Positions 30,146 to 54,669 of a DNA stretch of 64,000 bases are shown in pieces. The stretch lies in the NCBI GenBank assembly GCA_964016885.1, contig OZ024743.1:70556001-70620000 (forward strand), in the 5' to 3' direction. A program made the translations under genes and the position numbers. Position 1 is the first letter of the stretch, and every line of letters begins with the position of its first letter. The stretch comes from Eledone cirrhosa. Its lineage: Eukaryota. The notes beneath the pieces are model-generated. The model saw only the letters and a program-made list of their open reading frames with translations, did not search any database and was not told the DNA's origin.

Positions 30146-30947
<802 letters not shown>

Positions 30948-34389: not shown

Positions 34390-34761
34390 AGAAGTGGTAT
34401 TTAATTTGTTGGAAGTCCGACAAACATAAATGTTTATAACTGATTTAGAGCACTCAACAGTTTACTGGAGTAAATATTCAATGATATTAAATAAATGGTA
34501 ACTATATTTATAAAACCATATTTATTTTATTATATATATTTCAAGGGTAACCAAGACAACATTGGTACGCTACCCTGAAAATCATACCTTATCGGTTGGA
34601 AGAATTTCCAACCGATAAGGTATGATTTTCATGGGTATGTTTATAAAACAAACTTTGTATTTTATCTGATGAAAGCGTACCAATCTTGTCTTCGTTACCC
34701 TTGAAATATATATAATAAAATTAATATGGTTTGATAAATATAGTTTCCATTTATTTAATAT

Positions 34762-37625: not shown

Positions 37626-37836
37626 GTTTTAATATAGATGAGATTCTACAGGACTAGAACTGTTTCATTCTTTAGAAATCATCAGGAATCACTGATTCAA
37701 GGGATGCCTGATGATTTCTAAAGAATGAAACATTCTAGTCCTGTAGAATCTCATCTATATTAAAACTTTTATACTCTGCTATGTATTGAGTACCTTACTT
37801 ACTGTGGTTTCCTCCGATTCAACCCGGAATAACGTA

Positions 37837-39352: not shown

Positions 39353-39709
39353 TTCTACCTTGAGCTGCGACCGATAGATGGTATTAACAATTGGAAAGAC
39401 CAACGGAAACATTGTTCCCTCGTTCCGATTTGACGAAACGTGATCGATCCTTTATATATATATGTAAATACACACACACATACACATGTATATGTATACA
39501 TATATATATTTAATATAGAAAGGCTTCTACAGGACTAGAACTGTTTCATTCGGTAGAAATCACCAGGAAGCCTGATGATTTCTACCGAATGAAACAGTTC
39601 TGGTCCTGTAGAAGCCTTTCTATATTAAATATTTATACTCTGCTATGTATTGAGTACCTTACTAACTGTGGTTACCCCGGATTGAACCCGGGATAAACTT
39701 ATATATATA

Positions 39710-41164: not shown

Positions 41165-41893
41165 AAAGTTTTATTTAAATTGTTGGGTTACAACGAGTAA
41201 ATATTTATAACTGATATAAAAGCACTCAACAAGTATTTGGAGTATATTTACGATATAAATAAATGGAAACTATATTTATAAAACCATATTTATTTCATTA
41301 TATATATTTCAGGGATATCATATTGAAAATATGGTATGCCTTCTTCAGACAAAATACAATATAAACAGTCTTATAAATAAATAGATTTGACATACCTTAC
41401 AACTTCAACTTCCATTTAAAAAGTTGATTTGGTAGTGAAAAATGTTAGGGACAGTTATAAAAAGAAAGAAAGAAAGCGAAGAAAAAGAAGAAATGCATGC
41501 AACGAAAAACAGAGAGAGATAGATATAGAGAGATAGATAGAGAGAAGAAATTCATGTAAAGAAACAGAGAGGGATAGATAGAGAGAGAAAAAAACACAGA
41601 GAGAGATAGATAGAGAGAGAGAGAGAAGAGAGAGAGAGAAAAAAATAGAGAGAGATAGATATAGATAGAGATAGAGAGAAAGAAAATAGGTAGTTGGGCA
41701 CCAGTTGAAAGACGTATCAATGATATATTTATTTATTTATTTATTTATTTATTTAGTTCTAGTATTATTTATAAGACTGTTTATATTGTATTTTGTCTGA
41801 AGAAGGCATACCATATTTTTAATATGATATCCCTGAAATATATATAATGAAATAAATATGGTTTTATAAATATAGTTTCCATTTATTTATATC

Positions 41894-41897: not shown

Positions 41898-41943
<46 letters not shown>

Positions 41944-41948
<5 letters not shown>

Positions 41949-42340
41949 TAGTCCTTCATCAGTGATCTTCCAACCATCATTGGTATTTCATCGCTTTAAA
42001 GACCATATACCTCCGGTTGGTGCGACCCACGGCTAAAAAAGGTCGTTGGGACACGTAAATAAAGGGGACAAGAGTGTAAACAAACAAAAATGGTGAAGCA
42101 ACGAAATAGAAATTTGCGACTTGACTCCTTCTTCCTCACCTTTCGTTGCTTCACCATTTTTGTTTGTTTACACTCTTGTCCCCTTTATTTACGTGTCCCA
42201 ACGACTTTTTTTAGCCGTTGCTCGCACCAACCGGAGGTATATGGTCTTTAAAGCGATGAAATACCAATGATGGTTGGAAGATCACTGATGAAGGACTAAC
42301 TTTATTCATATGTAACCCATTAGCAACCCCGCAGCACGTT

Positions 42341-42347
<7 letters not shown>
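41944..42347 (+). mobile_element. Fold-back element, family H, carrying a rearranged hammerhead
   Basis: 41944-42103 is the reverse complement of 42141-42304; flanked by (TA)n. Confidence 0.85.
42195..42296 (+). ncRNA. Putative non-circularly-permuted hammerhead ribozyme (copy 1)
   Basis: GGUA-UA^-UGGUCUU (42236-42248) ... U-GAAA-UACC (42257-42265) ... AAGAUCA-CUGAUGA-A-GGAC (42278-42296); helices covary with copies 2 and 3. Confidence 0.75.
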
Positions 42348-42372
<25 letters not shown>

Positions 42373-44933: not shown

Positions 44934-45169
44934 TTCGTTTCTGAATTTGTTTAGCAAGATTCTTTATCTGAAAACGTGTGTTGAAACCGATATTGTTATA
45001 CTTTGGGAGGGTCATGTTGCCAATAAGAAACACATGCACCAGTTGCTTTCACTTCAATTTATTATAATAAATTTATAAATTTAGGAATTTATAAATTTAT
45101 TATAATAATTTGAAGTGAATGCAACTGGTGCGTGTGTTTCTTATTGGGAACATGACCCTCCCAAAGTAT

Positions 45170-45270
<101 letters not shown>

Positions 45271-46939: not shown

Positions 46940-47278
46940 AACACACACTCACACTCATGTATTAATACAGTGTGCAAACAACCAAAGGTAGTGAATTGGC
47001 AGAGTTGTTAGGACATAGACATTGGATAGAATACTTTGCTGTATCTGAGTTCGAATCCCACCGATGTCTACTTTGTTTTTCATTCTTTTGAGATCGATAA
47101 CTAAAATATCAATCGAACACTTGCGACCTTTATTCATTAGCCTTTCTTTCTGATTTTATCTCTTTTGCTCGCTGAATCTATCTGAATCTGTTCATATTAC
47201 CCACTCTATTACCCCCAAGTACCGAGTACTCTGGTGGGTTATGGTCCACCTGGTATTTTACCACACCCTATCTGATAG

Positions 47279-48375: not shown

Positions 48376-48481
48376 GTTTTCCTCATCAGTTGTCTACTGG
48401 GCGTCTCGGATATTTCCACGCTTTAAAGACAAGATATCTACCCCTAAAGCGTTTAATAGCTGGGTAAGTTATTGGGAAAAC
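48376..48481 (-). ncRNA. Putative non-circularly-permuted hammerhead ribozyme (copy 3, most divergent), within a (TA)n-flanked element 48329-48535
   Basis: GUUUUCC..ACGCUUU..GAUA-UC^-UUGUCU..AAAGCGU-G-GAAA-UAUC..AGACAA-CUGAUGA-GGAAAAC. Confidence 0.7.
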
Positions 48482-50067: not shown

Positions 50068-50250
50068 GGTGGATTGGCAGTATCAGTAGAGGGTCGGACG
50101 CCATACTTTCCAGCATAGTTACGTCCTTTTACGATCTGAGTTCAAATCCCGCCGAGGTTGACTTTGCCTTTCATCCTTATGGGGTCGATAAAATAAAGTA
50201 CCAGTAATGCACTGGTTAATTGCTGGCCTTGTGCCTAAAGTAGAAACAAT
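50068..50250 (+). mobile_element. SINE family 1 copy (diverged relatives at 46995-47110 and 53638-53800)
   Basis: Matches consensus. Confidence 0.87.
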
Positions 50251-50270: not shown

Positions 50271-50350
<80 letters not shown>

Positions 50351-50351
<1 letters not shown>

Positions 50352-50985
50352 AATGCGATGAAATACCAATGATCGTTGGCAAATCACTGATGAGGGACTC
50401 GTTTTATAACATGTAATCCATGTGCAACCATGCAGTATTCTTCTCCCCATATTTTTCATATATTTACCTAAACTGCGTTTCTATGTTTCTCGCTTTCTCT
50501 CTTACTGCTCCCTCGTTCTCTCTGTTTCTCTTACTTTCTTTCGTCCCCTCTGTCATGTCAGTTAACACTTTCTCTCTACTGACCTCTTCCTCGCACTTCC
50601 ACTCACTCACTTTCTGTTTCTCCCCTTCTTACTTCCTCCCGTTCGCTACGAATCCGATTTTCCTTCTTTCTCACATCGGATTCACTAGCGAAAAGTCTGT
50701 TTCTTACACGCTCATGTATTCACCCAGTTTATGCTAACAGAATAACCATGTTGCTTGTTTTTCTTTCCATCTTCGGTTAGCTTTCCCCTGTGTTGTTTAC
50801 TTGTCTCACTCGCTTTACGCGTTTCAATTGTCCCAATAACTTATTTTAGTTATTGTCGCACCAACGTGAGGTATATGATTTTTAATGCGATTAAATACCA
50901 ATGATCGTTGGCAAATCATTGATGAGGGACTCATTTTATAACATGTAATCCATGTGCAACCATGCAGTATTCTTCTCCCCATATT

Positions 50986-50992
<7 letters not shown>
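50351..50992 (+). mobile_element. ~530 bp-unit element with ~110 bp terminal direct repeats and a rearranged hammerhead (copy 2, 50830-50930)
   Basis: 50351-50460 is repeated at 50883-50992; the upstream repeat has intact GAAA and CUGAUGA, the downstream one has UAAA and UUGAUGA; pyrimidine-rich body; (TA)n flanks. Confidence 0.82.
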
Positions 50993-51025
<33 letters not shown>

Positions 51026-51234: not shown

Positions 51235-51443
51235 TATTTCGTTTCTGAATTTGTTTAGCAAGATTCTTTATCTGAAATCGTGTGTTGAAACCGATATTGT
51301 TATACTTTGGGAGGGTCATGTTGCCAATAAGAAACACACGCACCAGTTGCTTTCACTTCAATTTATTATATATTTATAATAAATTGAAGTGAAAGCAACT
51401 GGTGCGTGTGTTTCTTATTGGCAACATGACCCTCCCAAAGTAT

Positions 51444-52237: not shown

Positions 52238-52563
52238 ATGCATACATGTATATACATATTTACACATTTTGGGATGCCGTTGGCTCTTATGAGTTCTTCC
52301 ACCTTTTGTCAGGTTTTGTTTTTGTCCTGCAAACACCGGGGCTGATGCCCCGATGAAGGCCAGTCAAGCCTGAAATGCATAGACGGTTGTCCCCCTTGTT
52401 TCTGTTGAACACCACCAGAGGGCATTAGCCCCGGTGTTTGCATAGCTACGGCTTCCTAAGTGTTTCCTGTAAACATACCGTGTTTCTTTAGAAATACAAA
52501 ATTTCTATATATATTTCTATAAAGCCATGCTTGAAGCGAAATCCTATTTCTCCCCCCCCCCCC

Positions 52564-52619
<56 letters not shown>

Positions 52620-54278
52620 TTAGAGTATGTGTTAACTAATCACCGACAATTCAGTATGCAAGGTAAAGCACTCGATGAAGTACACAAGTTGGCCTGTTTA
52701 CCCAGGAGTATATTTATATACAGGAAGTACAAGTCGACAGTTTATAATTCACTTCATTTCGTTGATAAGTGCTGTAATATATATTCATGTGATAACCGTT
52801 ATGCAACAGTTATGACCTCATCAGACAGCTAGATGTTGAACAGAAAAACATAAATATGTAATAAAGCTTATGTTTGTTGTTTTGATTCATTGATATTCTC
52901 CAGACTGGTATTTGGTGTTGGTCTTTTAAAATCATATGGTATCGGTTCATAGAATACTTGATTTGGTAATTCACTGAATCACCTTTACTATCGACAGTTG
53001 ATCGACTTTCAACAAATCGGACCAAGGAAATAATGTTTACATTGCTCTTTCTAATTGCTAATGCTATCTATCGGTCGCAACTCCAGGTAGAAGGAATAAC
53101 GTGAAATAATGTATATTGTCCAAGGACATAACGTCTCACCCGGTACGGGAATTGAACTCATCACCTCACGATTGCGAATCCAATTCTCTAACCACTTGAA
53201 GGCGTACGGCTCACGATCATGATTTCGATTCCCAGTAGAACGTTATTCCCCGTTGCTCTATCGTTAACTCAGCTGGAAAAATTGGTTGTGTCAGTAATTT
53301 TAAAGGTAGTATTGTTACGGAATACGTCATGCTGAATCTCCCTGAAAATTTCGTTAAGTGTACAGGTATCTGTGGAGTAGTCATCCACTCACATGCTAAT
53401 TTCATGAGCAGGCTGTTCTATAGTTCGAACAACAATTGAAACACTCCCGGTTAGAACAGACGGAGATCCAGCATATATAAATTTTAAGCTGTAACTGACT
53501 TTTATGACCTTCGGCCTTTATAAGAAATTTATCTGATTATGTTGAGAAGTTTAGCAAATCTTGACGCGATATTCGTGCTAAATAGATTCCATATAGAAAC
53601 TAACGTGTTTATTCATATCACTATTAATTAGAGGCATGGCGGTGGATTGGCAGTATCAGTAGAACATCGGACAACATACTTTGTGGCATATAGTTACGAC
53701 CTTTTACGTCCTGAGTTCAAATACCGCCGAGGTTAGCTTTGCCTTTCATCTTTAAGAGGTCGATAACATAAATCACCAGTAACATACTGAGGTCGATTTA
53801 ATCGCCTCCCCCCCCCCTCCCAATGGGTGGGAGGCGGAAAGCCAAATATAACGACACAGTAGTTGACAGACAGATATTTCATTTTATCGACTCGAACCCC
53901 GTAAGATAAAGTAGCAGTCATGTAGTGGGGGCCATATTGGAGTAAACATAACCAGCCTCCAAATTGTTGACCTTTCCACCTACTTTAGAAACCACATATT
54001 TTATGACGTTTTTTTTTTTACACATTTCTATGTTAAGGCCCCTTCAGCTTTTCCTTTAACATTGATTAAGTTTCATGAAGAACATACTAGAATATTTCAC
54101 AATGTATTGCTAGTGAGAGGTGTCAAACGGCGTCCTCTTCACGATGGCCATTGTGATAATAAGGAAGATATAAAATACATAAGACAAATAAGTGTTGTAG
54201 GTTGTACAACATATAAAGTTCTTGTGGACTTTCTCACAAATATAATATATTTGAAAATATATATATCTGCATACATAA

Positions 54279-54382
<104 letters not shown>

Positions 54383-54669
54383 TGAGAGAGAGTGAGAGAG
54401 AGAGAGAGAGTGAGAGAGAGAGAGAGAGAGTGGAAAACGAAAAATCAGTGATGCATCGGAACTCAATTTATTGTGTGTTACAATTGTTTATCCCGGGTTC
54501 AATCAGGGGTAACCACAGTATGTAAGGTAATCAATACAAAGCAGAGTATAAATATTTAATAGAGAAAGGCTTCTACAGGACTAGAACTATTTCATTCGGT
54601 AGAAATCATCAGGAAGCCATATAAATATATATATATATATATATGTATACATACATACATACATACATA

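Follow-up and report, generated by a model that had tools for sequence, protein, structure and literature searches.

A high-copy repeat of Eledone cirrhosa with a predicted S-G-C hammerhead ribozyme and a likely relationship to Naiad retroelements

A 64,000-nucleotide stretch of the Eledone cirrhosa genome (hereafter the window; positions 70556001-70620000 of contig OZ024743.1, within a 3.0-Gb genome) contains an insertion between (TA)n repeats that runs slightly more than once through a repeat unit and starts a few nucleotides past the predicted cleavage site of a rearranged hammerhead ribozyme. The question raised by this locus is which kind of RNA served as its template. A preliminary description proposed an RNA whose 5' end was made by self-cleavage, or a circular RNA copied slightly more than once around, as in retrozymes, with the caution that a single junction may be a chance truncation. 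As a whole, the reading that we consider probable is that the insertion is a 5'-truncated copy of a high-copy, Naiad-related element that has no long open reading frame and whose RNA would cut itself by an S-G-C ribozyme and be copied into (TA)n.

The structure of the insertion agrees with the unit of about 530 bp and the redundancy of about 110 bp first reported, the lengths being 532 and 108 nt, or 113 nt for the redundancy if the TA overlap is counted (Table 1). The three mismatches between its two passes are at 50360/50892, 50387/50919 and 50401/50933. The start, described as about 7 nt past the scissile bond, is also as reported: the predicted bond is A50875^T50876, position 50351 corresponds to 50883, and the 5' end lacks the sequence upstream of the bond together with the first 7 nt downstream of it. 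The 5' junction is blurred by TA microhomology and, since the flank TATATG (50343-50348) is also identical to 50872-50877, it may alternatively have formed at the cut and then lost a short segment by deletion. Priming likely takes place at the CATATAT of the 3' end, which could base-pair with (TA)n once the target is nicked. In the downstream ribozyme copy, GAAA has become TAAA at 50892 and CTGATGA has become TTGATGA at 50919, both of which differ from the family majority; the variant letters were confirmed in contigs X1-X3 (one sample). Because of these two core changes, and because the upstream copy is without the cleavage-site strand, the ribozyme of the window's own copy is predicted to be inactive.

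Table 1. Features of the insertion and its flanks, in positions of the window
Feature	Position	Strand	Remarks
Whole insertion, 5'-truncated partial tandem, 1.2 units	50351..50990	+	GC 39.7%; longest overlapping ORF 105 aa
Single 532-nt unit, candidate monomer/circle length	50351..50882	+	Locus L013 contains 3 whole units plus parts
Terminal redundancy, pseudo-LTR-like, 108 nt	50883..50990	+	3 mismatches to 50351-50458
Upstream ribozyme half (G and C blocks, without S block)	50351..50406	+	
Upstream G block		+	GAAA 50360-50363; stem III strand 50364-50367
Upstream C block		+	Stem I strand 50381-50386; CTGATGA 50387-50393
8-bp hairpin 5' of S block	50834..50855	+	Look-alike at same place in Octopus Naiad consensus ends (by eye)
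S block	50861..50881	+	Stem III extension 50861-50866; kink-turn strand TGA 50867-50869; stem III strand 50870-50873; UA 50874-50875; predicted cut; stem I strand 50876-50881
Downstream G block (GAAA to TAAA) with stem III strand	50892..50911	+	3-nt bulge 50900-50902; predicted kink-turn GA 50903-50904; extension strand 50906-50911
Downstream C block, stem I strand and core (CTGATGA to TTGATGA)	50913..50925	+	
CATATAT at fixed 3' end	50989..50995	+	Second occurrence 50457-50463
(TA)n flank, 5' junction	50276..50347	.	
(TA)n flank, 3' junction	50990..51025	.	

The conserved blocks of the predicted ribozyme follow each other in the order S-G-C, that is, the cleavage site, then GAAA, then CUGAUGA, which by sequence makes it a non-circularly permuted hammerhead of type SGC (Eckert et al., 2023, PMC10085705). 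The core of this type (CUGAnGA, GAAA and UH) is intact in the family majority and mutated in the window's 3' copy, and the cleavage base (H17) is A, C or U, i.e. not G, in 137 of 140 instances. In an ungapped alignment of 14 hand-picked representatives, 95.4% of the 238 cells of stem I, stem III and the stem III extension form pairs, against 26-48% in slid controls, and both sides change in 14 of the 17 pairs (5 of 6 in stem I and 3 of 5 in stem III). A shuffle test gave 0 of 500, a figure that is not a probability, the aligned sequences being related. The covarying stems argue for selection on the fold. Energy folding, which cannot represent the pseudoknotted stem I, recovered stem III with its extension in three of five sequences and partly in a fourth.

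The weak point of the ribozyme model is stem II, which is irregular: three Watson-Crick pairs are found in only one sister family (that of L282-L311), and in the window's family it would consist of a G-U pair and tandem G-A pairs. Inspection by eye did not identify a helix joining stems I and II, which the published SGC ribozymes have. Rfam returned 48 weak matches, with no hammerhead family or other real match over the element among them, and a metagenome scan with the motif of one family gave 0 matches. According to the available part of the article on HRIMA-1 and its variants, RNAs of this type have been validated and come from environmental sequence, almost all of it metatranscriptomes; none of them was reported there from the genome of a known organism, apart from one weak bacterial GCS case (PMC10085705). 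The motif described here resembles those RNAs in the S-G-C order, the CUGAnGA and GAAA core, the covarying stems I and III and the direct link between a stem I strand and a stem II strand. It differs in belonging to an animal retroelement with more than 10,000 matches and in being predicted from sequence alone, in its irregular stem II, with no stem I-II helix identified, and in a long stem III that carries a kink-turn consensus, the word "kink" being absent from the main text of the article (PMC10085705).

Further hammerhead-like motifs are present in the window. At 41941-42369, a sister family forms a head-to-head pair with an intact S-G-C ribozyme in each arm and different 3' ends, the predicted cuts being at 42006 on the minus strand and 42241 on the plus strand, and at 48383-48451 (minus strand) there is a copy of a third S-G-C family, more diverged, whose cleavage site is UC and which shows compensatory changes. 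Ordinary type I-like cores belong to several other repeat families (30404-30433, 34666-34707, 37662-37731, 39572-39595, 41306-41348, 41797-41839, 52350-52376 and 54589-54612); they adjoin (TA)n, and some form inverted pairs.

How the blocks could come together within one RNA depends on stem III, which is 11-15 bp long and whose far end joins stem I via only 0-3 nt. Because the extension enters stem I through so short a link, folding in a single molecule needs a sharp bend. Stem III and its extension are separated by a 3-nt bulge, after which come G-A pairs, and these positions fit the kink-turn consensus (PMC5061560; consulted in part), which includes a known variant with U at 2n: a 3-nt bulge, G1b-A1n, A2b-G2n (or U) and two helices. 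Over 140 instances, G1b is kept in 139, A2b in 135 and A1n in 129, and 2n carries G in 108 instances and U in the other 32; among the search patterns used, GA was required only by the one with 268 matches, and not by the 45-nt, 5,131-match or 10,357-match patterns, and A1n by none. We infer that a kink-turn would supply the bend for the S-G-C fold in one molecule. Weak Rfam matches to C/D snoRNAs at 50869-50948 probably reflect this kink-turn-like sequence. If formed, the kink-turn would be both a structural solution for the pseudoknotted fold and a candidate handle for control by a protein.

The long stem III with its short link to stem I, hard to accommodate without a sharp bend, is also what a domain-swapped dimer would account for, in which the C block comes from a neighbouring unit, so that only multimers are cut and monomer circles are spared. 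One family (L265) has Watson-Crick pairs at the kink-turn positions instead, and dimer folding has been proposed for Penelope hammerheads (PMC4209133, seen in part). Against it, the 3-nt bulge and G-A pairs that would give the needed bend are kept in most families and in the Octopus Naiads, and the spacer from GAAA to the core is almost always 22-24 nt. We judge a fold by dimers only to be unlikely.

Copies of the element are numerous. A DNA search of the genome yielded 5,213 candidates, 40 of which were scored, and all 28 distinct loci among the 30 fetched share the 3' end CATATAT beside (TA)n and have variable 5' ends; one of these loci carries more than three units. An exact 45-nt pattern of the 3' end has 273 matches in the genome against 0 in the control. 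Looser ribozyme patterns have 5,131 matches, 10,357 matches against 3 in the control, and 268 against 7, and the matches fall into at least seven sequence families. The two passes within a copy differ by 2.0% (32 copies with overlap), and different copies diverge by 3.8% (unit positions 1-100). L273 is a nine-unit array of about 740 nt per unit with an intact ribozyme in each, and is a candidate source locus. Two sets of traits meet in these repeats: non-coding tandem units with one hammerhead each and low GC (including the L273 array), as in retrozymes, and 5' truncation, partial tandems, inverted 5' copies and (TA)n targets, as in Naiad and Penelope-like elements.

The preliminary description tied its self-cleavage idea to the distribution of 5' ends over all copies, and at the level of the family these ends do gather at the predicted cut, which lies 115 nt from the 3' end. 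The sample consists of the first 100 of the 273 matches (from C1-C3), chosen by their 3' end and unselected at the 5' end. A likelihood caller with a microsatellite-aware flank model gave 98 junctions; L113, placed at about 1,218 nt from its alignment, was added, and L100 was omitted. Twenty of the 99 ends lie 96-120 nt from the 3' end, where 3.7 would be expected from the 121-532 nt background and 4.7 with weighting for TA microhomology (P about 1e-7), and in 20,000 simulations no 25-nt window reached 20 ends. The next 33 nt (121-153 nt) contain none of the 99, against 4.3-4.9 expected (P about 0.01). At 36-95 nt there are only 2 ends, with 10-11 expected, for which we offer no explanation. 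The commonest ends of the short class lie 7-9 nt past the cut (10 of the 20), like the junction in the window. Formation of the short class as solo remnants of copies of the second round was ruled out by the empty stretch at 121-153 nt, and a single short master by the presence of all three subfamilies in the class.

Junctions of other kinds were also inspected. Six arms among 40 head-to-head junctions begin on the first base after the cut, and in L250 both arms do so with 14 unrelated bases between them; 10 of the 40 fold at a TTTAAA palindrome 5 nt past the cut and are less informative. The list of TA-flanked junctions on C1, read by eye, comes to 29 once one internal deletion is set aside; 23 of them fall between -2 and +9, and the other 6 between -7 and -16. 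Reverse-strand totals are 369 for the interval +11 to -19 and 209 for -8 to -38, counted from different anchors. In a separate sample that excluded most downstream ends there is no clear pile-up at the cut.

The self-cleavage idea therefore stands in part. The excess at the cut and the six arms that start exactly there support it, and the remaining 79 of the 99 ends lie elsewhere; for the sister families, no more than 6 of the 100 ribozyme copies listed have their end 0-12 nt past the cut (by eye, not significant), and about 7-8 of 100 end 14-33 nt before it (the 33 nt before the cut). The earlier caution about a single junction was justified: the window's copy (640 nt) ends in the second round, where many ends lie close to the cut on either side, and its junction alone proves nothing. 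It is compatible with a self-cleaved template and does not show it. In this second round, 4 ends lie just past the cut and 7 lie 7-25 nt before it (L055, L059, L097, L105, L110, L115 and L122); the latter have no counterpart in the first round and perhaps mark a transcript start.

The same map can be read without cleavage if uncut linear read-through RNAs were the templates, the ribozyme were vestigial or slow, and the breakpoints came from TA microhomology and later recombination of the redundant ends. A TA run indeed terminates 65 of 98 5' flanks, the modal ends sit on TAAT, the excess in the sister families is weak, and recombination could shorten long copies and so steepen the tail of copy lengths. 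This reading would also agree with in vitro results on a Poseidon element of Anolis, in which, according to the parts of the report at hand, uncut RNA was the main substrate (Frangieh et al., 2024, PMC11167929); in that work, cleavage was also unnecessary for insertion and priming took place without homology, both of which count against the favoured mechanism. However, the excess persists after weighting for microhomology, and TATAT across the cut, which is the best TA match, is used by one copy only. Collapsed copies of the second round would fill 121-140 nt, yet none of the ends lies in this range, some junctions that lack TA begin exactly at the cut, and the covarying stems speak for a selected fold. 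Templates that were all uncut appear quite improbable to us. The breakpoint map is a genomic record consistent with both cut RNA and circles as templates, of which in vitro work on another clade saw none.

For the circular template, the proposal likewise holds in part. A circle predicts a rise in termination after one round, since the enzyme must then displace its own cDNA. Termination per base is 0.0017 at 121-532 nt and 0.0079 at 533-820 nt, a rise of about 4.7-fold, and the change is best placed at 554 nt (likelihood ratio 41.5, with support from 510 to 574). The two passes of a copy also share subfamily variants: in the 32 copies with overlap, from the 98 called, 215 of 233 polymorphic sites are concordant and 18 discordant, and 135 concordant sites would be expected if the passes were independent. 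As the two passes would diverge in lineages that had only linear masters as templates, this concordance favours the circle. One discordant site recurs in four copies, the passes of L074 are about 7% apart, and indels at the cut are found in 3 of the 98 copies (L122, L128 and L099), which points to end-to-end template jumps or mixed or linear templates in some copies.

Such jumps are central to another account, in which the RNA is cut and never circularised, and the reverse transcriptase either falls off at the cut 5' end or switches to a monomer 3' end, that of its own template or of another, a switch that would mimic a circle. As this would predict, 18 of the 97 at risk in the first round, and 4 of about 20 in the second, end 0-19 nt past the cut, and the cut-site indels and the copies with two unlike passes also fit it. 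It leaves the sustained high termination across 533-820 nt unexplained, and most crossings of the cut are seamless, for which reasons we do not expect it to be correct, although we give it some weight. Copies of 1.0-1.5 units, like that in the window, are proposed to come from a circle copied past one round.

A candidate source of the copying enzyme is suggested by the target site and the 3' end. Naiad Penelope-like elements prefer (TA)n, occur as partial tandems and inverted 5' copies and, in the accessible text, are described as being without canonical hammerheads; eight of them, including Naiad_Ovul and Naiad_Esco, are tagged "HHR_half_core" (Craig et al., 2021, PMC8557442). Naiad_Obim, Naiad_Ovul and Naiad_Esco all target (TA)n, and cephalopod Naiads are called long inactive or remnants in the same source. 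The last 330-400 nt of 38 consensus sequences in its supplement were inspected by eye. The 3' ends of Naiad_Obim and Naiad_Ovul have the full S-G-C motif with stems I and III, the bulge, the G-A pairs, the extension and the upstream hairpin, and that of Naiad_Esco has the S-G-C order and both stems in a less regular form; by eye, no motif was recognised in the stretch displayed for Naiad_Omin and Naiad_Adux, and several nematode Naiads end in the ordinary C-then-G order. In Naiad_Smim and Naiad-4_Dst, GAAA also lies upstream of CUGACGA (by eye).

In the Eledone cirrhosa genome, the Obim motif gave a chance-level match only, and no intact Naiad was found: there are three motif matches, one of which is a decayed endonuclease remnant. 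None of eight rare S-G-C copies has a Naiad frame upstream, and other Penelope-like frames exist in the genome, none of them linked in sense to an S-G-C motif. Such a frame is present at L152 and L154 (1-1249, minus strand), an internally deleted, frameshifted Penelope-like element in which a hammerhead is fused to a reverse transcriptase YIDD motif and a GIY-YIG end; it was ruled out as the partner, being antisense to the motif and having its own type I hammerhead. This hammerhead shares 14 nt (the core plus 7) with one S-G-C family, which is possibly a trace of common origin. L321 carries, at about 780-1300, a decayed Naiad-like endonuclease remnant with stops and frameshifts. On the shared sequence features, the element is likely a non-autonomous relative of the Naiad Penelope-like retroelements. 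With Naiads, as far as that article could be consulted, it has in common the (TA)n targets, 5' truncation, partial tandems, inverted 5' copies and, judged by eye in the Octopus consensus sequences, what looks like the same ribozyme with its upstream hairpin at the 3' end; unlike them, it has no long reading frame and its copies are young, the passes being 2% apart (PMC8557442).

The element also resembles the non-LTR retrozymes, which, in the available text of two reports (Cervera and de la Pena, 2020, PMC7229834; Li et al., 2026, 10.64898/2026.07.22.740005), are non-coding, low in GC and built of tandem or partial-tandem units with one hammerhead each, and for which a circular RNA intermediate and a Penelope-like origin are proposed. 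Those elements are defined by a type I hammerhead and were detected with descriptors for it, which would miss the S-G-C order, and their units are about 300 nt (PMC7229834) or 51-972 nt (10.64898/2026.07.22.740005) long, compared with 532 nt here. The best reading is that the element works like a non-LTR retrozyme without being a member of that class as defined, its hammerhead not being of type I. In the Poseidon element, reverse transcription starts internally, downstream of the hammerhead (PMC11167929, accessible parts); shared with it are the internal priming proposed here, the AT-rich targets and two start sites that give a "tail", one sister family here ending at two TA-like sites about 40 nt apart. 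Unlike in Poseidon, every 3' end seen here coincides with an AU run matching the target, and the 5' ends cluster at the cut.

The sequences themselves show the structure of the copies, the conservation, the covariation and the breakpoint statistics, from which cleavage, kinking, circles and the partner enzyme are inferred. Put together, the favoured mechanism would proceed as follows. In the RNA, a predicted kink-turn would bend the long stem III back until its far end reaches stem I, so that the scrambled order could fold in one molecule. Read-through transcripts of tandem copies would be cut into 532-nt monomers, most of them then closed into circles. A Penelope-like endonuclease would nick (TA)n, and a reverse transcriptase, likely borrowed, would start internally, on the AU run that lies 115 nt past the cut. 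On linear cut RNA it would run off at the cut, and trimming back to the closest TA match would leave the class of up to about 115 nt; with a circle as template, the enzyme would continue round and, once displacing its own cDNA past 532 nt, drop off faster, which would give copies of 1.0-1.5 units.

A bolder extension, to which we give slightly less than an even chance, is that cephalopod Naiads and thousands of their non-coding parasites share an active, kink-turn-dependent S-G-C hammerhead, with stem III bent and possibly clamped by a host protein of the L7Ae family, with circles as the transposition template, and with copy lengths that record both the cut (115 nt) and the circle (532 nt). 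If true, this would make it the first ribozyme of its kind known from a cellular mobile element, and the apparent absence of hammerheads in Naiads would have an explanation. Searches of the open literature turned up no permuted hammerhead in retroelements or cephalopods, and subscription papers and supplements may hold cases. Now that an animal genome has yielded over 10,000 matches, and the motif is also seen at the 3' ends of published cephalopod Naiads, the puzzle of why Naiads seem to be without hammerheads becomes testable, and so does the role of hammerheads in the life cycle of Penelope-like elements.

Other repeats surround the insertion. A near-perfect 130-nt hairpin of inverted short repeats lies at 51307-51437 of the window, with Rfam microRNA matches below threshold and related copies near 45000-45205. 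Another short interspersed repeat is present at 50115-50250, just upstream of the element, and again at 47024-47123 and 53690-53789.
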